A stretch of 64,000 nt of DNA from an uncultured virus (IMG/VR IMGVR_UViG_3300030330_002762) (IMGVR_UViG_3300030330_002762); one strand, 5' to 3'; positions 2,924-40,512 are shown, numbered from the stretch's first letter. Program-made: numbers and translations. The notes: generated from the sequence alone by a model not told the origin.

Positions 2924-4632
2924 GGTAATGCTCCAACATCAGCTGTATCAGTTACTAACGGTATGTAACTACCTGATTTTGGCTCCCAATTAAAATGAGC
3001 TTCAGCTTGATTCTCACCTAGGTTTTGAAACTTAACCTTTAAGACTTTAACTTTAACTGTTTGAGCTTCATAATCTCTATGAACTAAAAGCCCGTGATAA
3101 CTAGCATCATACCATTCTCCACCACCTTTAATACTGTACATCGTAGGTTCTTCAATTTTACCTTCTTTGTCTCTGTACATTTTAGTAGGGTGAGCAACAA
3201 CCATAACTAACACATCATACTTTTTAGCAAATGTCTCGATCTTAGTTAAATACTCCATGGTATAACGATTAACATCTTCAGTCTTACAGTCAACATCTCT
3301 AATCTTATTAAAAGGATCAATGACTAAACATTTAATACCTTTACGTTTTACAAGCTCAGCGCCTTTACGTAACACATCTTCAAGAGTATATCTATCCATA
3401 TCAATAAAGAAATAATTATCATTAATATGTTCAGTAACTTGTTTCCATTTATCACTACCAACATCATCTTTTGTTGGCATTCCTTCCCATGTCTTACGTA
3501 TTAGCTTGTGAGCGTGTAGGAAATTAGGTTTGTTTTCTGGAGATGCAAATGCTGTTTTCCATCCATAATTTCTATTATAACCTATACACATTTGGTCTAC
3601 AAAATCTGACTTACCAGATGATGGTATACCTGTAACAGTTATAAACTGTGAGGTGTATGTAGAGAATATTCTATCAAAATTCTCTAAACCAACTTGATAA
3701 CCAGGTTTGAAACCATTGTGTACAAAGTCGAGTAAATCAGCTTCTATATCTTTAAGAGTTGAAACCCCTTCTAATGGAACTTGAGTTGCAGATGTTATAA
3801 CTTTTTTAAGTTCTTCTGCTCCGTGTTCTACTAAAAAGTCATTAGCATCTTTATTACCATTGAAATCTACTAAATAACAAACTTCAGCACCAAGACGTCT
3901 AATCAACTCATATCTTAAAGCTTGACCAGCTTCATCAGCATCGACTGCTAATATAACTTTATTCTTGTCTTCAAAATAATCAATACAATTATCTAGATAA
4001 TCTAGATTATTACTGTTTAACGTGGCACCGTTAGGAACTGATATCACATTTTTAATTCCAGCTTCGTGTAATGCTAACGCATCCATTTCACCTTCAGTGA
4101 TAACGCACCAGTCATATCCTACAATACTATTTATATTGTAGAATATCTTTTCAGCACCTTTATATAGTTTAAAATTCTTTCTTCCATCTCTATACTTTAT
4201 ATTAACAAGTTCATCACCCATAATATAATTAAACTGTATAGTATTTTCTTTCTGGCCAGTTTGAGGCATAAACTCTTCACCCGTTGTGACACACAAGTCA
4301 TCTAACGTTTGTTGAGTTATACCTCTAGTTTTAAACCACTCAACAGCCTTGTCTTTAACTGGTTCAAATACTTCAACCGGTATTGGCTTTACATATTCTC
4401 TAGTCGCATTACCTTTGCGCTGATACGTATGTAATTGAAAACTAGTATCACAGTTGTGACAAGTGCCGAGACCACGTTCCCAATCATAAGAAGCGCATTG
4501 TAGCTTTCTATTTTTGGGCTGTCTAGTGTGAGAGCACAAAGGACATATGCCTTGAGTACTCCCAGGTTTTAGACTGTATTGATTGAATTTATCAATCAAG
4601 AATCCATTGATCTCTGTGTTTTCTATATTCAT
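2911..4632 (-). CDS. T7 gp4/Twinkle-like DNA primase-helicase
   Basis: N-term CPLC..CHNC Zn ribbon, TOPRIM ITEGEMD..DAD, Walker A TGIPSSGKS, VIDP, AHP. Confidence 0.95.
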   Translation of the reverse strand: MNIENTEINGFLIDKFNQYSLKPGSTQGICPLCSHTRQPKNRKLQCASYDWERGLGTCHNCDTSFQLHTYQRKGNATREYVKPIPVEVFEPVKDKAVEWFKTRGITQQTLDDLCVTTGEEFMPQTGQKENTIQFNYIMGDELVNIKYRDGRKNFKLYKGAEKIFYNINSIVGYDWCVITEGEMDALALHEAGIKNVISVPNGATLNSNNLDYLDNCIDYFEDKNKVILAVDADEAGQALRYELIRRLGAEVCYLVDFNGNKDANDFLVEHGAEELKKVITSATQVPLEGVSTLKDIEADLLDFVHNGFKPGYQVGLENFDRIFSTYTSQFITVTGIPSSGKSDFVDQMCIGYNRNYGWKTAFASPENKPNFLHAHKLIRKTWEGMPTKDDVGSDKWKQVTEHINDNYFFIDMDRYTLEDVLRKGAELVKRKGIKCLVIDPFNKIRDVDCKTEDVNRYTMEYLTKIETFAKKYDVLVMVVAHPTKMYRDKEGKIEEPTMYSIKGGGEWYDASYHGLLVHRDYEAQTVKVKVLKVKFQNLGENQAEAHFNWEPKSGSYIPLVTDTADVGALPWES

Positions 4633-6528: not shown

Positions 6529-7287
6529 TTACAGATAGTCAACTACTTGCGAGTAAGGAACCTTCTCTATTAACTTGTCAATTGCAAGCTTTTTTAATTG
6601 CGATATACGCACATAAGAACTAGTACCTTTTATGCCTAGTATGCTAGCTATTTCCTTTGCTGAGTGCTTCTTACAGTCAAGTCCGTAGGATAATCTAAGC
6701 ACTTGATATTCTTTTGGGTTTAAGTAGTTTAACATTAAGCTTTTTAAGTAAGCTGATAGCATTTCTACGTTATACTCTTTAACACTGTCAGGTATATTAT
6801 ATGCAGCAGCTTGTTGTTCTGGTGTACCAGCATCCAAGCTTGTAAACACAGAGTTAAAAAACATAGATACCATACGTTTATCTTCACCAAAATCTTTACG
6901 TATCTCGTTAAGTTTATGCTCTGGTATACGCATGCTGCCTCTATTTGTATCAATACCTCTACGTATAGCTCCTTTTATTCTTTTAGCTAAAAATGATTTT
7001 AATCTTTTAGGTTTGTTTTCTGCTTCTAAAACCGTGTCCCACTCTATCCTGTTGACACCGGCACACAAGCCTAAATTACCTTCTTGTATTATATCCATAA
7101 TGCTCATCACGCCACTAGCTTGTTGAGCTGTTGAAAATTTTCTTGCTAGTTTTTCGACTAAAGGTAAGAATCTAGTTATTAATTCATCTTTAGTTAAATT
7201 CTCATAAGGTTTATCTGGCAATCTTTTTATAGCAGCGGCCATGTCATTTTTATATCTTATATAATTTTGTACGTGATATTTCTTCAT
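6529..7287 (-). CDS. Phage sigma70-family RNA polymerase sigma factor
   Basis: Region 2 LPLVEKLARKF..MDIIQEGNLGL..RIKGAIRR, MRIP; region 4 LNPKEYQVLRLSYGL..KEIA..RISQLKKLAIDKL. Confidence 0.9.
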   Translation of the reverse strand: MKKYHVQNYIRYKNDMAAAIKRLPDKPYENLTKDELITRFLPLVEKLARKFSTAQQASGVMSIMDIIQEGNLGLCAGVNRIEWDTVLEAENKPKRLKSFLAKRIKGAIRRGIDTNRGSMRIPEHKLNEIRKDFGEDKRMVSMFFNSVFTSLDAGTPEQQAAAYNIPDSVKEYNVEMLSAYLKSLMLNYLNPKEYQVLRLSYGLDCKKHSAKEIASILGIKGTSSYVRISQLKKLAIDKLIEKVPYSQVVDYL

Positions 7288-10221: not shown

Positions 10222-10422
10222 TTACGCGTCAAGATTATCAGGTAAGCAAATAACATTAGCAAGTTCTTCAGTAATTTCGTTATTTTTTACTAATGAATCT
10301 ACCATGTTATTAAATGCCTCTCTTCTAGCTGGACCATCAATTATGTTATCTTGCTCATATACTTCTTTTATTCCAGGAAGTATATAATCTTCAAAATATT
10401 CAACTATTTGTTTTTCTGTCAT
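10222..10422 (-). CDS. Hypothetical protein
   Basis: ORF, acidic, in early region. Confidence 0.65.
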   Translation of the reverse strand: MTEKQIVEYFEDYILPGIKEVYEQDNIIDGPARREAFNNMVDSLVKNNEITEELANVICLPDNLDA

Positions 10423-10434
10423 ATTTAATTAATT

Positions 10435-10755
10435 TAGCAGCTCGGGGAGGAATCGAACCTCCCACCTCGTCAGGCAATATTAGTACCAATTCAAGCTGTG
10501 TGAACCGTAGGTGTGGTTTAATTATTACCGAGTAGTTTAATGTTAAGAGATTTCGCTCCCGCTCATGACTAATTACTTTATCCTACATTGAACCACCTAG
10601 TTCACTGTGACCAACCTCATCTTTATACATAGATATAGTCAGGTCACATTTTGAATATAAAGCTGTGCACATTTTCGTGAATTGTCGCTTTATACTCGCC
10701 CTATACAGGGTTTTTGAGTGGCTCGGTTACCCGAATTTGTCACACCACTCGTGTT
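10435..10755 (-). ncRNA. Putative structured ncRNA with 3' tRNA-like (anticodon-less) domain
   Basis: ORF-free gap of about 340 nt with multiple complementary stems; 3' end has stem CAGCTTG/CGAGCTG and T-arm GGAGG-TTCGATT-CCTCC. Confidence 0.65.
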
Positions 10756-10764
10756 CATAACTGA

Positions 10765-11145
10765 TTAATTCACTTCCGTCGACGCTTCTTCGTCGTCACT
10801 TTCATCAGCTACGCCAAATAACTTCTCAACATCTTGTATAATTTGCTCGTATAAATCAGCATGGCATTCAAATTCTATGTGGCTTAATTCCACCTTATTA
10901 TCATAATCCATACTCATTTCAACATTATAGCAATCAGCTTGGTTGAAATCAAAGTTTTCCACGCTAGTTTCTATAACTCTATGTAACTCAGCAAACTGCT
11001 TGTTAGTTAACTTTGGCTTATCACAATCCTCTAGTCTCTGTGTAGCTACTTTCAAATCGTGTTCTAAATCTTTCACCTGCTCTTGATGAGCTTCAAGTGA
11101 AACCTTTAGTTTCTCTATTTCTTTATTTAATTCTTCTTTATTCAT
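10765..11145 (-). CDS. Hypothetical coiled-coil/acidic protein
   Basis: N-terminal heptads, acidic C-terminus. Confidence 0.65.
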   Translation of the reverse strand: MNKEELNKEIEKLKVSLEAHQEQVKDLEHDLKVATQRLEDCDKPKLTNKQFAELHRVIETSVENFDFNQADCYNVEMSMDYDNKVELSHIEFECHADLYEQIIQDVEKLFGVADESDDEEASTEVN

Positions 11146-12522: not shown

Positions 12523-12556
12523 TATATTATCTTATACTTATCGTATTTACATTGTG
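12523..12556 (-). promoter_or_regulatory. Early promoter-like motif, copy 4
   Basis: CACAATGTAAATACGA-N9-GATAATATA; overlaps the tRNA 3' end. Confidence 0.75.
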
Positions 12557-12628
12557 ATTGAGGTAGGATTCGAACCTACACTCTACAGCTTAGAAGGCTG
12601 TTGCTTTATCCAGTTAAGCTACTCAACC
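12555..12628 (-). tRNA. tRNA-Arg(TCT)
   Basis: Full cloverleaf: GGTTGAG/CTCAATC acceptor, GCTT/AAGC D-stem, ACAGC-CTTCTAA-GCTGT anticodon arm, GTAGG-TTCGAAT-CCTAC T-arm; CCA not encoded. Confidence 0.95.
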
Positions 12629-12630
12629 AT

Positions 12631-12726
12631 TTACCACTCTAAATCAGCTATATCTTCTAGATAACTAGCATAATACTCGTGTTGTTGCTCGTTGTATTCT
12701 TCGTCTGTTAATTCTTTATAAGGCAT
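12631..12726 (-). CDS. Small acidic peptide (31 aa)
   Basis: Hand translation MPYKELTDEEYNEQQHEYYASYLEDIADLEW. Confidence 0.45.
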   Translation of the reverse strand: MPYKELTDEEYNEQQHEYYASYLEDIADLEW

Positions 12727-12983
12727 TTTCTTATCAATTTTTTAGTTAAACCATCTGCTATTTTATCATTTTTGATACATAGCAATTCACCACACTTTTC
12801 ATATTCTTCGGTGTTTTCGTAGAAAGATATTACTTCGTCAATATCTTCAGTAGTTATATCATATGGGTTACCATAAAACATAGCATCTACTCCTTCATAC
12901 TGTTCGAGAATATCTTCTACTGAACACCTATTTGTTAATACTCCGTAAGTATTACTCATTATTATTTCTATATCTATATTCAT
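12708..12983 (-). CDS. Hypothetical protein with UVR-like motif
   Basis: Likely start MNIDIEII at 12983; TEEYEKCGELL. Confidence 0.6.
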   Translation of the reverse strand: MNIDIEIIMSNTYGVLTNRCSVEDILEQYEGVDAMFYGNPYDITTEDIDEVISFYENTEEYEKCGELLCIKNDKIADGLTKKLIRKCLIKN

Positions 12984-12984
12984 A

Positions 12985-13145
12985 GTGGTAGTTGTGGACT
13001 CGAACCACTTGATTGTCATCACTCGGAGAGGACTACAGCCGCCTTCCTACCATGTATTACTCATTCGCATTTTTTATAAGACGCTAAACAAGTGGAACTA
13101 CGTCTTTAAATCACCACTAGTTAATCAGCACTTCACTAGTGGTTT
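12985..13145 (-). ncRNA. Second tRNA-like structured element
   Basis: TGGTAG/CTACCA stem, TGAT-GACA-ATCA hairpin, GTGG-TTCGAGT-CCAC T-arm; upstream hairpins AAGACG/CGTCTT and ACCACTAGT/ACTAGTGGT. Confidence 0.45.
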
Positions 13146-13153
13146 TGTATGAT

Positions 13154-13255
13154 TTATAAATTGCTAATCATAAATATCAATAGCACAATTCCGCTGGCGA
13201 TATAAATAGTGTTTAATAAACTTTTAAACACTACTTCATGATTAAACTTCCGCAT
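13154..13255 (-). CDS. Small membrane peptide (33 aa)
   Basis: MRKFNHEVVFKSLLNTIYIASGIVLLIFMISNL, TAATG-coupled. Confidence 0.45.
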   Translation of the reverse strand: MRKFNHEVVFKSLLNTIYIASGIVLLIFMISNL

Positions 13256-13485
13256 TAGGCAATATCTTCATTTCTTACCGACATTGGCAAATTATTACTC
13301 GCAGTGTACGACTTGTACTTTGCCCAGCAGGCCATCGCTTCTAGCTTGTCTTTCATTATTGCGAACACTTTGTCGTGATTATAAGTCGCGGTTTTACCAT
13401 TTTTGAACTCTACATTTATAGTCGCGTTCTTACCGACTAGAGATTGTCTTACTACAAATCTCTTACTATTTATTACATTAGTCAT
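13255..13485 (-). CDS. Early hypothetical protein, paralog of 13954-14175
   Basis: KRFV.R.SL.GKN..YNHD.V..KD..EAM.C.AKYKSYT shared. Confidence 0.8.
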   Translation of the reverse strand: MTNVINSKRFVVRQSLVGKNATINVEFKNGKTATYNHDKVFAIMKDKLEAMACWAKYKSYTASNNLPMSVRNEDIA

Positions 13486-16745: not shown

Positions 16746-18311
16746 ATGGAATACAACTTACCAAGTGAGTTGGTGAAAGATCTTAGCTTTGGTGATAATG
16801 CTAAAGCTAAGGTAATCACCGGCGTAAATAAATTAGCCCAAGCCGTTAAATCTACATTAGGAGCGTCAGGTAAATGCGTTATCTACGAAGACGGTCGTGG
16901 CAAACCGGTCATAACAAAAGATGGTGTAACCGTTGCAGAAAGCGTAGTCTTGTTAGATCCGGTTGAGAACATGGGCGCAACGCTCATAAAAGAAGCCGCT
17001 AGAAATACAGTACGCGATGCTGGTGATGGCACAACAACTGCTACAGTATTAGCTGAAGCATTAATTCAACAAATAGACACTGCAGTCGCAGATGGTCTTA
17101 CAATCAGAGAAATTAAAGATGGAGTAAACGAAACACTAGATAGTGTTATTAGCTATTTAAATGATATCGCTATAGGTGTTGAAGGTGATATGCTCAACTC
17201 TGTTAGTGCTATATCTTGTAACAACGATAAAGAGCTAGGTGCTATTATAGCAGAAGCTTATGATAAAGTTGGTAAGCAAGGTGTTGTACTTATGGAAGAA
17301 AGTGAATCAGAAGATACTTATGTAGATATCGTAGATGGTGTACAAGTAGAATGTGGACTTACATCTCCACATTTTGTAACTAACACAGACAAACACACAT
17401 GTGAACTAGATAATCCTCTTGTGTTAATATGTTCATCTGAAATACCTAATATACGTAAGATACAAAACATATTAGAGTATGTTATTAAAAATAACCGATC
17501 TTTACTTATAGTAGCGCAAGTTGCTCAGCCAGTTAAGTCGGCATTATTAATGAATAAAGTAAAAGGTAATATAAAGGTTAATATAATAGATTTACCAGGC
17601 TTTGGTCCTACTAAGAAAGATGCTACTGAAGATCTAGCTATATTAACAGGTGCAACAGTACTTAATGAAGAGTTGGGTGATGATTTAGATCTTATGAAAC
17701 CAGAACACTTGGGTGAAGCTGAGTTTTCTATAACAAACGAAAAGCATACCGTACTTACTATAGAGGGTATGACAGATGGTATTGAAAATAGAATAAACGA
17801 ACTTAATAAAAAGTTTTCTAAAGAGCAAAACAACTTTTTAAAAAATAAACTAGAAGAAAGACTAGCTATGCTATCAGGTAGTGTAGGTATAATACGTGTT
17901 GGGGCAAACTCCAAGGTTGAACTCAAGGAAAAGAAAGATAGAATAGAAGATGCTATATATGCTACTAAAGCCGCTTTGCAAGAAGGTATAGTGCCAGGTG
18001 GTGGTGTAGCGTTGTTAAACGCATCTCAAAAAATTTCGACCAGCGATGCTGGTAAAGTATTGTTAAACGCATTGTCTTCACCGTTTGAAACTATCATGGA
18101 TAACGCTGGACTAAAACTTAACAAAGGCATGAAAGAAGGTTATGGCTGTAATGTTATAGATGGTAGTTTTGTTAAGATGGTTGATAGTGGTATTATTGAT
18201 CCAGTACTTGTAACTAAGTCTGCACTTAAAAATGCTGTAAGTGTAGCACTAACTATTATGTCAGCAGATTGTGTAATATCAAATATAAGAATAGAAAATG
18301 CAAGCAGTTAA
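16746..18311 (+). CDS. groEL: Chaperonin GroEL
   Basis: [34 protein letters not shown]. Confidence 0.97.
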
Positions 18312-18555
18312 CGATTACGTAATAGTTGATATAGTAAAAGAAGGTCCAAAGAAAGTTGGTGGTCTTATATTAACAGACGAAACAGATGAAACAAACAGAT
18401 ATAAAAAAGCAAACATTATATCTGTAGGTAATATGGTTGATGTGGTTAAACAAGGTGATAGTATATACTACGATGCTGTAGCTGGACATGATATAGCGTA
18501 TAATGATACTATGTATCGTGTTATACGTGCTAGAGATATAGTTATAGTAGAATAA
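18298..18555 (+). CDS. groES: Co-chaperonin GroES
   Basis: D.VIV..GGLIL..ISVG..VKQGD; adjacent to groEL. Confidence 0.85.
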   Translation: MQAVNDYVIVDIVKEGPKKVGGLILTDETDETNRYKKANIISVGNMVDVVKQGDSIYYDAVAGHDIAYNDTMYRVIRARDIVIVE

Positions 18556-34329: not shown

Positions 34330-37300
34330 ATGCCAGATATAAAACACACTTTCACCGGTGGAAAAATGAACAAAGACGTGGACACTAGATTTGTTCCACA
34401 AGGTGATTACAGACATGCGGAAAATGTTCAGGTAAGAACTACACAGGGTGATAGCACTGGAGAGGGTAATTCTGGCTCTGTTCAAAACGTGAGAGGCACA
34501 AGTATTTTAGGTAGTATTAACTTCGACGGGTTTATTAACCCTAATTACGATTGTGTAGGTAGTATTGCTGATGAAAAAAATGATAAAGCTTATTTTTTAT
34601 TTAGAGGTCCAAGTCCAGCTATGGTTACTGGCGAAGGTAAAGCCCCTATAGTATACGCCGATATGATAGCTGAATACAACTTGACTAATAACTTAGAGTT
34701 AGAGCCAGTTTTAGTTGACGTAAAAGGTTATTGGTCTTCTGTATCAGATCTTTTAGACACTGAAAGCGCAGGAACAGCTTATGTAAATATAAACATTAGT
34801 TCGTCTAGCGGTCTTTATGACGCTATAAGGGTGCAAAACGCTGATTCAATTAGAATAGGTATGAGGGTTACTCCTTTAGGTGTTACGTTTAGTGGTGATC
34901 CACAAGTTTTTGTAAAAGATATAATAACTTTTGATGAATCTAATGACTCAAGACTTATACTGTTGAGTGTTCCTCAATCATTAACAACTGGCTTATTACC
35001 TGACTTGGGAAGCGTACTTTTTAGTATGCCAATAAAAGATAGGTTGTTAAATTTTAATCCTCAACAGATTAGTGCTATAAACATTATTGACGATCTACTG
35101 TTTTTTACAGACAATTTTAATGAACCTAAAAAAATAAATATACCAAGATGCAAGGCGGGTACAACTAGTTTTTCTAGTCACACCAAAATGATGGTGACAG
35201 ACCCTAGAGATAGTGATGATATAGTTGATGTTGCTGACGTAGAGTTTATTGGGGTAAGTGACACTAGTTTTTTAAACAATGATTTACTTATTGATAATGT
35301 AACTGTAATAAGAAAACCACCAAAAACTCCACCTTCTATTCACGTTACAAAAAGAGAAGAGATAGATTTGAGTGTACCTGTAGATTTTGTTCCAACAGAT
35401 TCAATGTTAACAGATGGTGGTATTGGCGATATATTAACTTTACAAAGTAATACCTTTACGCAAACTAACTATAAAGTTGGTGATGTTTTAAAAATGCAAT
35501 CGCAAGAAGACCAGTTTTTAAGCCTAACCGTAACTTTCATGTCTTACACTACCGCATTAAGTGTAGATGATTTGGATGAAAGTGAAGAAGATTCTCTTGG
35601 TGTTAACGCGCCTGTTGTAAGTGTTTTAACCCCAACAGACACAATACAAGTTAGTTTAGTTTCTATAAACCTACTAACAGGTGGTGGATTAGACACTACA
35701 GACGATGAATGGATTGTTTCTTTTGATTTTGAAAACGATATAAACCAAAAAAAGTTATTTGAATTAAAATTTCCTAGGTTTGCATATAGATACAAGTACG
35801 ATGATGGTGAGTGTTCTTCTTTTTCTCCATTTTCAGAAGTTGCTTTTTTTCCAGGAGATTTTGATTATGATGTTAAAAAAGGTTATAATTTAGGTATGAC
35901 AAATCATGCTTTTGAGTTGGTTATTAAAGATTTTATACCTATATATACTCATAGAGATTTAGATGTTTCTGCAGTAGATATTTTAGTTAAAACAACAGAT
36001 GATGCTAATGTCTATATTTTAAAAACAATAAAAAGAGGTATTGATCCAGAGTGGGAACTTTTTACAACTGGTGAAGATATTTCTGGTTTTACATTGCAAC
36101 CTACTTTTAAAACAGGTGAGTTAACTTTAACATCAGAAATGATTCACAGTGTTTTGCCAGGTAATCAATTATTAAGAGCTTGGGACAATGTGCCAACAAA
36201 AGCAAAAGCTCAAGAAATGACAGGTAGTAGGTTGTTATTTGCAAATTATACTCAAGGTTATGATTTAAAAAACTCAGTATCTTTAACTCAATCAATTATC
36301 AGTGAAAACACACCTACTTTAAGTAATCCTGAAAGATCTGTTAAAACAAATAGAAGTTACAAGTGGGGTTTGGTTTTTGGTGATAAGTATGGTAGAGAAA
36401 CACCGGTCTTAGATTCTTCTTATATAATTGGAGATGAAACAACTGGTTTTAAAAGCATTACGGGTGACACTGTGGTTCCACAAACATTATGTGCTTTTAG
36501 AAATAGATTTATTATGAAGCAGGATTGGAACGATCCTTCACAACAAGACACCGCTAATCAACCAGATAGCTGGATAGACTACGTAAAATATTACGTAAAA
36601 GAAACAAGCTCTGAGTATTATAATCTTATTTTGGATAGATGGTATTACGCTAAAGAAGAAGAAAACATATGGCTTTCTTTTGATACTTCTGATAGAAATA
36701 AAATAGATGAAGAAACTTATTTATTTTTAAAAGGTCAACATGGTACACCAAAACCAGTAATTGAGAGAGACGCTAGGTATAAAGTTATTGCAATCGAAAA
36801 CGAAGCTCCAATATTTATAAAAACTGAAAATAGAATATTAGGTGATATTAAGTTAACGAATAGTGAAACAGGTGTTGCTTCAGATACTAGCTCCGATCCA
36901 CCAAACAATCTACTAACAGCTAGGAGCATAAACATACCTGGGGATAATACTGGTACATCTACTGCTGGTACTAGTAGTATAGGTTCTTTTTTAAATCAAT
37001 ACAACATTGAAGAAGCTAAAGGTCAATTAGCTTTTAGAATAATTGGGAAAATGATGAGTGGTAGCACTGTAGTTAGTGAGCATAGATTTCACAAGATAAC
37101 ACCTGTGAATAGCGTTCAATGGCAAGGAGGCGATGCATCAAACACATACGTATCTTGGCAAGAACCGCTTGGAAATGAAGTAAACTACGCTAACCATTTA
37201 GCTGATGTAATAGCTAGTGATGATACTCTAGGGTTAGAATATCACATAGAGTTTATTGAGCAAATAGAAGTTAATAAACCAGAGTTTGATGGTAGATTTT

Positions 37301-40300
37301 TTGTATTAATAGAAAAAGATAAATCTATAATTTCTAACGTTGAGTCCCAGTCTGTTCCAACTGGTGATTTCGTCTATGTAGATACTACTGTTAATTTTGA
37401 AATATCGTACTTAGCGTCTGTAGCCAACAATCCTGGTACACAAGGACCGTATTCAAGTTATCAATTTGATGATGATGGTGATATAACGCAATCTGGCAGT
37501 GTCAATATTAACGGAGGAACGCTTGGAATAGGTTGTAGTAATGGTGCATTTGATCAAGCATTTCTTGGTGGAGGAACTAATACTGCGGCTAACACAGCAA
37601 ATTTTATAGAAACAATTAGAAGCCAAGGTCTTGATGATATGCTTTTTATGGATGGATTTAGATTTAGAAGAGCATCATCTCAGTATGCTGAAGATCTAAG
37701 TGATTTAGGTTATACCAGCGCGTTTGGCACTGGTGGTACATATCCTGATCCTTTTAATGGACTAAATTTTACTAGGCCAAGGGCTCTCAGGCAAGGCGGT
37801 GCAGATGCTGGTACATATGGAAGAATGGCTTTATCTCAAATGATAACAACAAATGAGATTGATGGTTTTGCCGGTACGGCATTATCAAATTTAGCTCACT
37901 TTGAAGAAGGTCAAGCTTTTAAGTTTGAAGGTGACCCGTCTAGAATATATAAAGTTATAGCGTGCCACACATTTTCTGGAACAGCTATTAGAAACCATAC
38001 AATTGCCACCGGTACAAACATGTCTGACCCCGACGCTTTTCATATTTTTGCAGACGTTAATAACGCTGGCTCATATCAAAATCGTTACATGGGAACTGAT
38101 ATTAACAATTGCACACCATGTAGCGGTAATAATTTTGGCGGTAATGATTCATGTGCTGACGCTTGTTTTAGAGCAACTAGGGTAATAGATTTTAGAAGAA
38201 TAGATACTGATACAAATAATGTTACAAATGAGGGTGTTGATTATAGTGTATTTGATCCAAGGGGTCAATTAAAACATGACGGTATTAATGTAGCTAATGA
38301 TAGTAATAGAAGAATAAAATTAATAAAAGTTGCTTTAGCGGAAGTACAAGGATCTGTAGTAGTACCTAGCTCTAATAAAGCTATATTTGAAACAGAACCT
38401 AAAGAATCTGTGGATTTAGATATATACTATGAAGCTAGTCATGCTATACCCATGACACTTAATGAAAACAACTACGCCGCATATATACCTCATGACTGTG
38501 AAGTTAAATTAGAAAGATTTATAAAAGATCGTTATGAGATACCTATAATAAGTGAGTTAACTGAAGAAAATAACCAACTAGTTGTAATACCAAAATTTAA
38601 TCCCTTTGTTTCAAACGTTGGTACTTCATCAAGAGGAAATCCAGTTGTAGCATTAAGAGGTTATGAAACCGAAGACTCAGTTGGTGATAGCTCTCTGTTA
38701 AAGCATGGGATATTTCCAAATGATCAATTAAACTTTATACATAAAAACGGTATAAAAACAAAATCAAAAATATTAAGACATATAGAGAGTACTGGTTTAG
38801 AAGTTGAAATTGTTTCTATTACAGTAGAAAATATAACAGCGTTAGGTCAATTTTCTTTTTACACTGGCACAGGTGTAACTATAAACGAAGATGATAACAT
38901 AGGTTTTGTTAATTACCAATCAAATCTTGGTATTGATACTGGGATGCAGTTAGTTAACGCATATATACCTCAATCTTTTTTTGATGCACTAGCAACTCAG
39001 GTGACTATTTTCCCACAGCTTGCTCCCGTAATAGAAATAATAAACAGTGTTGTACAGCAATTAGGCGGCTTTAACACACCTTTAGATATACCAAGTAACG
39101 TTTATATTGTAAATGTTACAGATGGGTTTAGCGCTTTACTTTCTGACACAACTTGGATGGCTGCACCAGAAGGAGATATAGCTATACCTTTTGTTCTTGA
39201 GTTAGTAAAACCAACGGGTTACTACGAGATAGACAAAGAAACATGGAGATATCCTATAGATTTAAGTTGGCACAATTGTTATACTTTTGGAAATGGATTA
39301 GAGTCTGATAGAGTAAGAGATGACTTTAATGCTCCTCAATTAAATAATGGCGTAAAAGCTTCTACAACAGTAACCGAGTATGGAGAAGAAAATAGATCTA
39401 GTGGAATAATATATTCTGGCGTGTATAACTCAAGATCTAGTGTAAACAAACTCAATGAGTTTAACATGTCTGAAAAAATAACCAAAGACTTAAATCCAGC
39501 ATATGGTTCGATTCAAGCTCTTAAGACAAGAGATACCGACGTTGTTGTTTTTGCTGAAGACAAAGTACTAAAGGTATTAGCTAATAAAGATGCTTTATTT
39601 AACGCTGATGGTAATCCGCAACTAACAGCTTCTGATAAAGTTCTTGGCACAGCTATTCCTTTTGTAGGAGACTATGGTATATCTAAAAATCCAGAATCAT
39701 TAGCTAGTGATCAATATAGAATTTATTTTGCCGATAAACAAAGAGGCGCTATATTAAGATTATCAAGAGATGGTTTAACTCCTATATCAAGTGTAGGTAT
39801 GAAATCTTGGTTTAGAAATAATCTTAGAATGACTTCTAAAATTTTAGGAACATTTGACGTGGTTAACGGCGAATACAACGTTTCTCTTACTATACCTGCT
39901 TTTCCTAATATAAAAACAATTTCTTTTAATGAAGCTACTAAAGGTTGGGTTAGTTTTAAATCATATAGACCTAGTAGTGGTGTTTCTGTTTCTGGAAAAT
40001 ACTTAACTTCTTTTAAAGCTAGTGTGTATGAAAATAACGCTAGTTCTACATCCAGAAATATTTTTTACGACGATCAAGAGCCTAATGCCTCAGTTTTAGA
40101 AGTTATGTTTAATGATATGCCTAGCACTGTTAAATCTTTCACTGCTATTGACTACGAAGGAACTCAAGCTAGAATTAGCATTGATAATAATGATAGCGAA
40201 TATTATAATCTACAAGAAAAACCTGGTTGGTATGTTGATTCAATTTCTACAGATATAGAATCAGGTGATACATACAATTTTGTAAACAAAGAAAACAAAT

Positions 40301-40512
40301 GGTTCGCCAAGATATGTGGTGAAGAGAATGTGTTTGACACCTCACACTTTGCTATACAAGGGTTAGGTTTTGCAACCTCTGAACCAATTTTAATTGAACA
40401 AACAAGTGGAGGAGATGTTAACACTAGTGTAGATAGCAATGACAGTAACGAAGTAAATATAGATACACAAACGCCAATGAATTTAACAATACGAAATAAT
40501 CCAAATCATTAA
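34330..40512 (+). CDS. Large tail protein (nozzle/stabilization protein-like, 2060 aa)
   Basis: F..GKMNKD.D start, LLFFTDN.NEPKKINI, FAYRYKY.DGE.S..SPFS, YGISKNPES, GWVSF. Confidence 0.75.
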   Translation: MPDIKHTFTGGKMNKDVDTRFVPQGDYRHAENVQVRTTQGDSTGEGNSGSVQNVRGTSILGSINFDGFINPNYDCVGSIADEKNDKAYFLFRGPSPAMVTGEGKAPIVYADMIAEYNLTNNLELEPVLVDVKGYWSSVSDLLDTESAGTAYVNINISSSSGLYDAIRVQNADSIRIGMRVTPLGVTFSGDPQVFVKDIITFDESNDSRLILLSVPQSLTTGLLPDLGSVLFSMPIKDRLLNFNPQQISAINIIDDLLFFTDNFNEPKKINIPRCKAGTTSFSSHTKMMVTDPRDSDDIVDVADVEFIGVSDTSFLNNDLLIDNVTVIRKPPKTPPSIHVTKREEIDLSVPVDFVPTDSMLTDGGIGDILTLQSNTFTQTNYKVGDVLKMQSQEDQFLSLTVTFMSYTTALSVDDLDESEEDSLGVNAPVVSVLTPTDTIQVSLVSINLLTGGGLDTTDDEWIVSFDFENDINQKKLFELKFPRFAYRYKYDDGECSSFSPFSEVAFFPGDFDYDVKKGYNLGMTNHAFELVIKDFIPIYTHRDLDVSAVDILVKTTDDANVYILKTIKRGIDPEWELFTTGEDISGFTLQPTFKTGELTLTSEMIHSVLPGNQLLRAWDNVPTKAKAQEMTGSRLLFANYTQGYDLKNSVSLTQSIISENTPTLSNPERSVKTNRSYKWGLVFGDKYGRETPVLDSSYIIGDETTGFKSITGDTVVPQTLCAFRNRFIMKQDWNDPSQQDTANQPDSWIDYVKYYVKETSSEYYNLILDRWYYAKEEENIWLSFDTSDRNKIDEETYLFLKGQHGTPKPVIERDARYKVIAIENEAPIFIKTENRILGDIKLTNSETGVASDTSSDPPNNLLTARSINIPGDNTGTSTAGTSSIGSFLNQYNIEEAKGQLAFRIIGKMMSGSTVVSEHRFHKITPVNSVQWQGGDASNTYVSWQEPLGNEVNYANHLADVIASDDTLGLEYHIEFIEQIEVNKPEFDGRFFVLIEKDKSIISNVESQSVPTGDFVYVDTTVNFEISYLASVANNPGTQGPYSSYQFDDDGDITQSGSVNINGGTLGIGCSNGAFDQAFLGGGTNTAANTANFIETIRSQGLDDMLFMDGFRFRRASSQYAEDLSDLGYTSAFGTGGTYPDPFNGLNFTRPRALRQGGADAGTYGRMALSQMITTNEIDGFAGTALSNLAHFEEGQAFKFEGDPSRIYKVIACHTFSGTAIRNHTIATGTNMSDPDAFHIFADVNNAGSYQNRYMGTDINNCTPCSGNNFGGNDSCADACFRATRVIDFRRIDTDTNNVTNEGVDYSVFDPRGQLKHDGINVANDSNRRIKLIKVALAEVQGSVVVPSSNKAIFETEPKESVDLDIYYEASHAIPMTLNENNYAAYIPHDCEVKLERFIKDRYEIPIISELTEENNQLVVIPKFNPFVSNVGTSSRGNPVVALRGYETEDSVGDSSLLKHGIFPNDQLNFIHKNGIKTKSKILRHIESTGLEVEIVSITVENITALGQFSFYTGTGVTINEDDNIGFVNYQSNLGIDTGMQLVNAYIPQSFFDALATQVTIFPQLAPVIEIINSVVQQLGGFNTPLDIPSNVYIVNVTDGFSALLSDTTWMAAPEGDIAIPFVLELVKPTGYYEIDKETWRYPIDLSWHNCYTFGNGLESDRVRDDFNAPQLNNGVKASTTVTEYGEENRSSGIIYSGVYNSRSSVNKLNEFNMSEKITKDLNPAYGSIQALKTRDTDVVVFAEDKVLKVLANKDALFNADGNPQLTASDKVLGTAIPFVGDYGISKNPESLASDQYRIYFADKQRGAILRLSRDGLTPISSVGMKSWFRNNLRMTSKILGTFDVVNGEYNVSLTIPAFPNIKTISFNEATKGWVSFKSYRPSSGVSVSGKYLTSFKASVYENNASSTSRNIFYDDQEPNASVLEVMFNDMPSTVKSFTAIDYEGTQARISIDNNDSEYYNLQEKPGWYVDSISTDIESGDTYNFVNKENKWFAKICGEENVFDTSHFAIQGLGFATSEPILIEQTSGGDVNTSVDSNDSNEVNIDTQTPMNLTIRNNPNH

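Follow-up and report, generated by a model that had tools for sequence, protein, structure and literature searches.

A mosaic of structured RNA modules ending in an anticodon-less tRNA-like element in a phage genome: a putative variant of tRNA/tmRNA mimicry

The DNA analyzed here (the window, 64,000 nucleotides in full) is the genome of a phage, about 64 kb in size and with a G+C content of 33%, which encodes a terminase, portal, GroEL/GroES, two giant virion proteins, primase-helicase, ligase, Erf, and a sigma-like factor. No integrase was found when 37 ORFs were compared with PHROGs and 65 ORFs with Pfam. The terminase shares 62.5% identity with its counterpart in an uncultured freshwater podovirus and 46% with the terminases of Flavobacterium elemoviruses, and the next matches belong to Cellulophaga, Tenacibaculum, and Maribacter phages; judged from these relatives, the host is very probably a marine member of Flavobacteriia. 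The GroEL and GroES homologues are encoded at 16746–18555 on the plus strand and the sigma-70-like factor at 6529–7287 on the minus strand. A 2060-aa virion protein (34330–40512, plus strand) has a weak C-terminal match to the crAss 'muzzle' (E = 5e-4), which lies under the Pfam cut-off.

The cassette that is the subject of this report occupies a gap of 342 nt in a block of small ORFs on the minus strand. The gap separates ORF 10765–11145 (minus strand) from ORF 10222–10422 (minus strand) and contains no ORF of 40 aa or more. Relatives of the upstream ORF were present in three viral contigs only and gave three further loci, and no relatives of the downstream 66-aa ORF were found among viral contigs. 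The structured region extends over 10437–10750 on the minus strand, about 315 nt between the two same-strand ORFs, and is followed by a 14-nt trailer of A and U only (10423–10436), which runs directly into the ATG of the downstream ORF. There is no terminator on the minus strand, and no promoter or terminator prediction stands out around the cassette.

The original prediction for this region was a structured non-coding RNA of about 320 nt with an anticodon-less tRNA-like domain at its end. All the stems it named were found at their minus-strand positions, and the minimum free energy (MFE) fold recovers them. The MFE of the minus strand is −99.5 kcal/mol, compared with −78.6 ± 5.6 kcal/mol for shuffled sequences (z = −3.71, with none of 100 shuffles as good); for the plus strand of the region z is −2.98. 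At gathering score, Rfam 15 has no match in the region. In the interval 10300–10900 nothing scores below E = 1, the best sub-threshold match being tRNA-Sec (15 bits, E = 4.7), and the tmRNA model RF00023 has no match there at E up to 10. In the whole window, nothing other than tRNA-Arg falls below E = 0.05 and no sub-threshold tmRNA match appears. ARAGORN called only the tRNA-Arg at 12554–12628 (minus strand) in the window and made no call in the cassette region. The Infernal/Rfam and ARAGORN checks proposed with the prediction thus gave no known family and no tRNA or tmRNA, and its statement that the terminal element is not a canonical tRNA agrees with the silence of both ARAGORN and the Rfam tRNA model on that element. 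Together with the comparative evidence below, these results support a conserved structured phage RNA that is absent from Rfam 15.

Homologues came from uncultivated viruses and metagenomes. A near-identical record (G001) carries the region at 100% identity, and two divergent relatives were recovered from IMG/VR by exact-word scanning. No match was obtained when the region was compared by blastn with 50,697 phage records of GenBank. Loci were gathered by way of the nearby ligase gene, 43 of them viral and 80 metagenomic, the latter kept from at least 557 relatives. The tRNA-like element (TLE) lies 1.0–2.3 kb upstream of the ligase on the same strand. A model (R1) built from 12 aligned viral TLE sequences scores the window's TLE at 71.8 bits (E = 2e-13) and, in a search of the whole window, matches the TLE and tRNA-Arg only. 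In the 80 metagenomic loci R1 gave 30 matches in 29 loci; of the 29 metagenomic loci with 1.6 kb or more of sequence upstream of the ligase, 22 contain a match. ARAGORN called none of the homologues in 25 loci a tRNA or tmRNA. Among deposited phages, R1 had no match at E up to 1 in the cultured relative Flavobacterium phage Elemovirus NC_055854.1, and gave a weak match (20.9 bits) at 519–634, in an unannotated gap, in the freshwater podovirus MW202828.1 (L049/L053), the nearest relative deposited in GenBank; that match shares the non-alanine acceptor top of the window. No cultured phage carrying the element was found. A same-strand ORF of at least 40 aa starts 15–78 nt after the element in 34 of the 43 TLE loci examined. 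These ORFs fall into at least 10 unrelated protein groups, the largest accounting for 17 of the 34, and therefore the cassette is not tied to one gene.

The TLE (10437–10498, minus strand; 62 nt) is the 3'-most module. As in tRNA (RF00005), it has a 7-bp acceptor stem, formed by 10492–10498 and 10438–10444, and a T arm (10445–10463) with a canonical 7-nt T loop, the T stem being of 6 bp and not 5. It has no D stem-loop and no anticodon arm with 5 bp and a 7-nt loop. Between the acceptor and T stems there are only 16 unpaired nucleotides and a 4-bp hairpin with a 4-nt loop; this stretch includes a GG that mimics the elbow (10486–10487), a 10-nt spacer (10476–10485) at the site of a variable arm in homologues, and the mini-hairpin itself (10464–10475, with its near-invariant loop at 10468–10471). 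The stem is followed by an invariant C (10437). A hammerhead-like identity of the mini-hairpin was considered and rejected, the rest of the core being missing and Rfam giving no match.

In the alignment of 12 viral sequences, 203 of 204 cells of the TLE helices are paired, and in 27 distinct metagenomic sequences, aligned to R1 and hence to a model made from the viral set, 99.1% of 448 cells are paired. The same fraction of pairs, 13 of 17, has compensatory changes in each alignment. None of 500 shuffles matched the observed covariation score or the percentage paired in either alignment, and slid controls were 35–51% paired. One locus (L020) was left out of the TLE alignment A3, its mini-hairpin being displaced by two columns. 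With covariation and pairing far above those of the shuffles and slid controls, the 62-nt TLE is a real element under selection. Lack of covariation had been named in advance as an outcome that would count against the prediction; strong covariation was seen, both here and in the pseudoknot described below.

The 4-nt loop of the mini-hairpin is identical in 12 of 12 viral and 29 of 30 metagenomic sequences, and the base after the acceptor stem is C in all of them (12/12 and 30/30). At the top of the acceptor stem, the first pair alternates cleanly between C-G and U-A, the second is A-U in every viral (12/12) and metagenomic (25/25) sequence, and the third is G-C in 11/12 and 24/26, respectively; pairs 4–6 vary freely. 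The GG after the acceptor strand and the G-C pair that closes the T loop are invariant or almost so. Wobble pairs occur on the minus strand only (nine cells in the viral set and many in the metagenomic set, for example G-U in 16 of 27 sequences at one pair). Since these positions are mismatches on the other strand, the RNA is assigned to the minus strand.

The acceptor and T stems together form a helix stack of 13 bp (7 + 6) as against the canonical 12. An alternative register, seen in the alignment of L027 with L033, has 6 + 6 bp plus an extra terminal pair; in that register the invariant C would be the first base of a partly encoded CCA, and it would otherwise be a discriminator C. A C one base after the stem is also present in the phage tRNA-Arg and in other tRNA-like elements. 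The interval between the GG and the mini-hairpin ranges in homologues from 10 to about 95 non-conserved nucleotides, often forming a hairpin, and the shortest form is that of the window, G001, and one further locus (L067). The description 'anticodon-less' is thus true of the window, where it is the extreme of a variable feature and not a fixed property of the family. One related locus (L101) has two window-type TLEs in tandem, at 1187–1271 and 1286–1397, the second with a different mini-hairpin loop.

A single unpaired base (10499) joins the TLE to the preceding module E (10499–10605, minus strand), a pseudoknot domain closed by a 6-bp helix, H1 (10600–10605 with 10500–10505). Inside H1 are helix S1 (10592–10596 with 10513–10517) and the crossing helix S2 (10582–10586 with 10507–10511), and the helices are separated by a loop rich in A and by a variable insert that contains a small hairpin. 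The crossing helix is revealed by comparison of six long forms of the module with three short forms of 51–55 nt. In these nine sequences all 45 cells of S2 are paired and three of its five pairs show compensatory changes, and by eye H1 and S1 change in step between long and short forms. The value of 82% paired for S1 is an alignment artefact, as MAFFT shifts S1 by one column in two short forms. The nested pairing that had been predicted beside the long-range helix fails in the short homologue forms, and the pseudoknot fits better. Among 14 viral homologues inspected, the pseudoknot adjoins the TLE in 10 and another hairpin module does so in the remainder. A role of the A-rich stretch in encoding a tag peptide was considered and rejected: by eye no reading frame is common to the homologues, and the stretch pairs in the pseudoknot.

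Three hairpin modules, described here from the MFE fold, lie further 5' on the minus strand. Module A (10711–10750), a hairpin with an internal loop and a capped inner hairpin, begins 15 nt past the stop codon of ORF 10765–11145; in its variants in L002, L011, and L012 the outer stem is kept through one compensatory change and the inner hairpin differs, as judged by eye. Module B (10651–10710) consists of a 4-bp hairpin followed by an 11-bp hairpin and is 97% identical in L011 and L104. Module D (10606–10647), a long irregular hairpin, is 98–100% identical in L007, L008, L076, and L079, and the only change seen in its stem (L008) yields a wobble pair on the minus strand. Modules B and D vary too little for covariation testing.

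These 5' modules recur, often with 97–100% identity, across phages whose ligases are just 70–80% identical. Their order and combination vary from phage to phage, and they are mixed with modules that the window does not have, but they are found at this one locus in every case. The TLE is the last module in every cassette seen, whatever precedes it. The original view of one RNA of about 320 nt holds in that the region is a conserved, structured minus-strand phage RNA; it does not hold in that the RNA is a mosaic of exchangeable modules and not a fixed unit. Two other conserved, structured modules occur in the same cassettes and are missing from the window, module C (L007, L008, L012, L015, L019, and L029) and module F (L010, L012, L015, L032, and L055). 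Metatranscriptome contigs link module F to the window's module D in relatives, with loose ends at 10647. A search of Rfam with the cassette of one relative (L012, 4300–4950) found nothing credible.

The cassette is not the only place in these genomes where a tRNA or tRNA-like element is found between genes. The tRNA-Arg of the window (anticodon tct as printed) begins 3 nt after a stop codon. A second element, at 12968–13150 on the minus strand, has at its 3' end a T arm and a short acceptor-like helix that is followed by an A; before these come a hairpin, whose covarying stem encloses a conserved 17-nt loop, and an A-rich stretch that is likewise conserved. This element overlaps a probably spurious ORF (12708–13022), and many related loci have counterparts 1.5–2.7 kb further upstream of the ligase. 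Its fold is no better than that of shuffled sequences (z = −0.93), and an Rfam scan of 12640–13300 found nothing credible. In many related loci a similar short A/T-rich motif is seen within the 15–45 nt that follow the tRNA or tRNA-like elements, just before the next start codon; this motif could be a phage promoter or a translation leader.

Relatives of a different type bear on the affinities of the TLE. In six cases a tRNA-like element lies 2.0–2.7 kb upstream of the same ligase gene and carries G1-C72, G2-C71, G3·U70, and A73. These alanine-type, mini-tmRNA-like genes are found in L021 (3564–3658), L022 (3562–3646), L024 (1246–1420), L025 (1390–1477), and L027 (3680–3853), and as the second element of L020 (about 3880–3983), where the alanine-type element and a window-type TLE stand in tandem. 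The element of L027 encodes CCA. Four of the six, which lie 2.2–2.7 kb upstream of the ligase gene, match RF00023, at both ends of the model only: L025 with 42.6 bits (E = 1e-13), L022 with 35.1, L024 with 27.0, and L027 with 23.8 bits. All four partial matches (E from 1e-13 to 1e-5) fall short of the gathering score (47), since 326 model positions are represented by a body of just 40–130 nt. L027 (3670–3865) and L033 (3769–3966) are 96% identical, and most of their differences fall in the acceptor strands, where the alanine type is changed to a non-alanine type. This switch points to discrete acceptor identities.

The TLE of the window has the layout of the tRNA-like domain of tmRNA (TLD), that is, an acceptor, a T arm, a GG-bearing substitute for the D loop, and no anticodon arm. 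As had been predicted, it does not have the alanine ends of tmRNA: its third acceptor pair is G-C, its stem is followed by C, and G3·U70 and A73 are absent. It has no tag frame with a resume codon; its inner body consists of 10 nt and a 12-nt hairpin, and the pseudoknot is outside it, on the 5' side. When the 10 bases after the acceptor strand are compared by eye with the Rfam tmRNA consensus, seven are equal in L002 and L007 and four in the window. R1 scores the alanine-type elements at 29–36 bits, barely above real tRNAs (up to 28.7 bits), and sequence does not establish a common descent of the two types. Because four relatives match the ends of RF00023 upstream of the same ligase, the nearest known kind to the window TLE is tmRNA-TLD mimicry.

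Part of the stretch is present in 20 of the 24 sequencing runs listed, six of the 20 being RNA libraries. One study has two metatranscriptomes with contigs, 236 and 209 nt long and both 100% identical to the window, that cover 10560–10795 and 10570–10778, and the longer contig extends 31 nt into the upstream ORF. Two further studies have contigs in which single modules are covered and continue into other sequence, as would be expected from the shuffled cassettes of relatives. No contig from the two best runs covers 10437–10498 or most of the flanking 5 kb, and coverage ends at 10560 and 10570; as assembled contigs and not reads, these data say nothing of transcript ends, strand, or absence, and RNA libraries can contain DNA. 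A 92-nt contig of X19 spans 10486–10538 but has just 13 nt on the tail side of the cut proposed below and was not counted as bridging it. The RNA-library contigs fit a transcript of the cassette without proving one.

What, then, is the tRNA-like end of the cassette for? The explanation that we consider best, to which we would give about an even chance (0.5), is that host RNase P and RNase Z excise the TLE from an early polycistronic transcript and leave a stable RNA capped by the pseudoknot. A cassette of independently folding modules would be transcribed together with the small early minus-strand genes, and its last module, a mimic of tRNA, would be recognized by the tRNA-processing enzymes of the host. 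The cut on the 5' side of the TLE, by RNase P, would fall at 10498/10499 or beside that position, and a second cut, by RNase Z or an equivalent, would fall behind the TLE. Three products may be expected: an upstream structured RNA of about 250 nt, ending in the closing helix of the pseudoknot with an overhang of 1–2 nt, a 3' end that 3' exonucleases would find hard to attack; a free mini-tRNA of about 62 nt, which could receive CCA; and a downstream mRNA with a short, unstructured A/U leader.

Several observations favor processing. The TLE keeps the helix stack, the canonical T loop with its invariant G-C closure, and the invariant GG, and so retains the features needed by tRNA enzymes that read the elbow and the acceptor. 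Its fold is embedded in a longer stretch with RNA modules before it and an ORF after it; it is always 3'-most while the preceding modules differ, and no minus-strand terminator is present. The tRNA-Arg and the second tRNA-like element occupy the same kind of position between ORFs. The distance from the preceding structure also fits: in 35 of 35 loci a predicted helix ends 1–8 nt (median 2) before the acceptor, and in the window the distance from the closing helix of the pseudoknot to the acceptor is 1 nt; in tRNA-Arg controls the median distance is 6 (n = 8), a modest contrast. Other observations are not accounted for by processing alone. Conservation of the 4-nt loop, the acceptor top, and the C behind the stem exceeds what a signal of shape needs, the stack has 13 bp, and the acceptor begins with a pyrimidine, a base that is less than optimal for bacterial RNase P. 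The tandem copies in L101 and L020 would be needless for a mere cutting mark. Processing alone leaves the sequence invariance, the 13-bp stack, and the tandem copies unexplained. These features point to a specific protein partner of the released mini-tRNA. Processing and a role of the TLE as effector or decoy are compatible with each other.

A tentative alternative, clearly less probable than processing, places the function in the TLE itself, as an effector derived from tmRNA-TLD that would bind a host protein at its acceptor end or elbow and act as a decoy, inhibitor, or carrier of an amino acid, the upstream modules then being cargo or separate RNAs. SmpB, an aminoacyl-tRNA synthetase, EF-Tu, or a tRNA-targeting defense enzyme could be the partner. 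Such a role is suggested by the four relatives with RF00023 ends, G3·U70, and A73 upstream of the same ligase, by the switch between alanine and non-alanine acceptors in L027 and L033, by an acceptor top and following C that are (near-)invariant while the lower stem varies, and by the agreement with the tmRNA consensus after the acceptor strand, greater in L002 and L007 (7/10) than in the window (4/10). There is also a precedent in the TLD-only tmRNA of phage DS6A, a kind of molecule described as an inhibitor of tmRNA (PMC4131195, citing Mao et al. 2009). The window TLE, however, has neither G3·U70 nor A73 and no tmRNA match at E up to 10, the R1 scores of the alanine-type elements hardly exceed those of real tRNAs, and no gene for SmpB, a synthetase, or a CCA-adding enzyme was found among the 37 ORFs compared with PHROGs and the 65 compared with Pfam. 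Combining effector and processing, one may speculate, with considerable doubt, that podophages of marine Flavobacteriia keep 'tRNA-scaffolded' RNAs derived from tmRNA-TLD with at least two interchangeable acceptor identities. The first identity would be the alanine type. The second, that of the window (a pyrimidine-purine end pair, A-U second, G-C third, the invariant C, and the 13-bp stack), would be read by a specific protein of host or phage, the mini-tRNA would interfere with ribosome rescue or tRNA-directed defense, and the modules with their pseudoknot cap would be exchangeable cargo released by the same cut.

The structured region starts 15 nt past a stop codon and finishes 14 nt short of a start codon of the same strand. 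This position might instead suggest a cis-acting untranslated region, either a 3' UTR that stabilizes the upstream mRNA or a 5' leader governing the ORF downstream, and the lack of an outstanding promoter or terminator prediction and the entry of the 236-nt contig into the upstream ORF by 31 nt would agree with it. We consider this unlikely, given that the downstream ORFs belong to at least 10 unrelated groups (the largest 17/34), that relatives of the upstream ORF occur in three viral contigs only, that two different upstream ORF ends are seen, and that the modules are shuffled. An origin of the TLE by decay of a tRNA gene, or as the portion of an attachment site that derives from a tRNA, is very improbable: tRNA and tmRNA genes are frequent targets of phage integration and the acceptor and T arms are tRNA-like, but 13 of 17 pairs are kept by compensatory changes over 39 distinct sequences, features foreign to tRNA are conserved, and no integrase was found among the ORFs compared with PHROGs and Pfam. 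Moreover, a search with the 3' half against 185,579 species, one genome each, gave a single match, in a Gemmatimonadaceae MAG, with no ARAGORN or R1 call. Hardly any weight can be given, finally, to an element acting as DNA (an origin, a packaging site, or promoter hairpins). On the plus strand, too, the fold is better than those of shuffles (z = −2.98), and the phage has a sigma-like factor of its own; against this, wobble pairs are restricted to the minus strand and would be mismatches on the other, the T loop and elbow are features of RNA, and RNA-library contigs cover the region.

Known systems share parts of the architecture. Mycobacteriophage DS6A was reported to have a tmRNA gene reduced to the TLD (Hudson et al. 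2014, PMC4131195), and according to the same article, which cites Mao et al. 2009, a TLD-only molecule strongly inhibits tmRNA whether or not it can be charged, perhaps by titrating SmpB. The alanine-type relatives resemble this gene. The window TLE is like it and RF00023 in being phage-encoded, with an acceptor, a T arm, a GG-bearing D-loop substitute, neither D stem nor anticodon arm, and almost no body; it differs in the absence of G3·U70, A73, a tag frame, and any RF00023 or ARAGORN match, and in its 6-bp T stem, the mini-hairpin before the T stem, and the fused 5' array of modules.

The 3' ends of MALAT1 and MEN-beta (PMC8457004, PMC4824109) consist of a triple helix and a tRNA-like RNA (mascRNA) cut by RNase P. 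There, as in the cassette, a compact structure lies directly upstream of a non-decoding tRNA-like element of about 60 nt, and a protected 3' end and a mini-tRNA are expected. MALAT1 is, however, eukaryotic and nuclear, with a U-A·U triple helix and a proven cleavage, whereas the cleavage in the window is predicted and there is no sequence relation. Plant mitochondrial t-elements are tRNA-like structures in polycistronic transcripts that were proposed to be cis-signals for RNase P and RNase Z, defining mRNA ends (Forner et al. 2007, PMC1920247); they are degenerate copies of tRNA without conserved extra motifs, whereas the TLE has invariant non-tRNA features and covarying stems in many phages. 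The YrlA Y RNAs of bacteria and phages are, like the cassette, non-coding RNAs with a tRNA-like domain, and in M. smegmatis YrlA is a substrate of RNase P to which CCA is added (Chen et al. 2014, PMC4201824). Unlike the TLE, YrlA is encoded beside Ro60, and it carries its tRNA-like domain, with a D arm, internally. No TROVE/Ro60 domain was found in the window (37 ORFs against PHROGs and 65 against Pfam), and Rfam had no match in the region. The 3' tRNA-like structures of the plant viruses TYMV and TMV have an upstream pseudoknot domain and a pseudoknotted acceptor arm, are aminoacylated, and stand at the 3' end of an RNA genome. They too have a pseudoknot directly 5' of the tRNA-like structure; the TLE differs from them in its acceptor helix, which is an ordinary one, and in its place inside the transcript of a DNA phage.

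In a full-text search of the literature we found no description of the architecture. A survey of IMG/VR lists 8,495 viral candidate structured RNAs, some of them tRNA-like (PMC10690425); no description of an element with the architecture of the TLE cassette was found in it, and its supplementary tables may list the family. On sequence evidence, we regard the cassette as an undescribed variant of phage tRNA/tmRNA mimicry, with a putative function.

The genes for tRNAs in phages are usually explained by codon supply. The TLE cannot decode, yet it is under tight structural selection, in a phage group that is common in marine metagenomes, with at least 557 ligase relatives. The finding joins three subjects that are as a rule considered separately, namely tmRNA-like domains of phages, tRNA-like processing signals, and the capping of RNA 3' ends by pseudoknots or triplexes. 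If the processing model is true, viruses that infect bacteria would make stable non-coding RNAs in a manner like that of MALAT1. If the TLE is a decoy, there would be a second, non-alanine acceptor identity for TLD-like RNAs.
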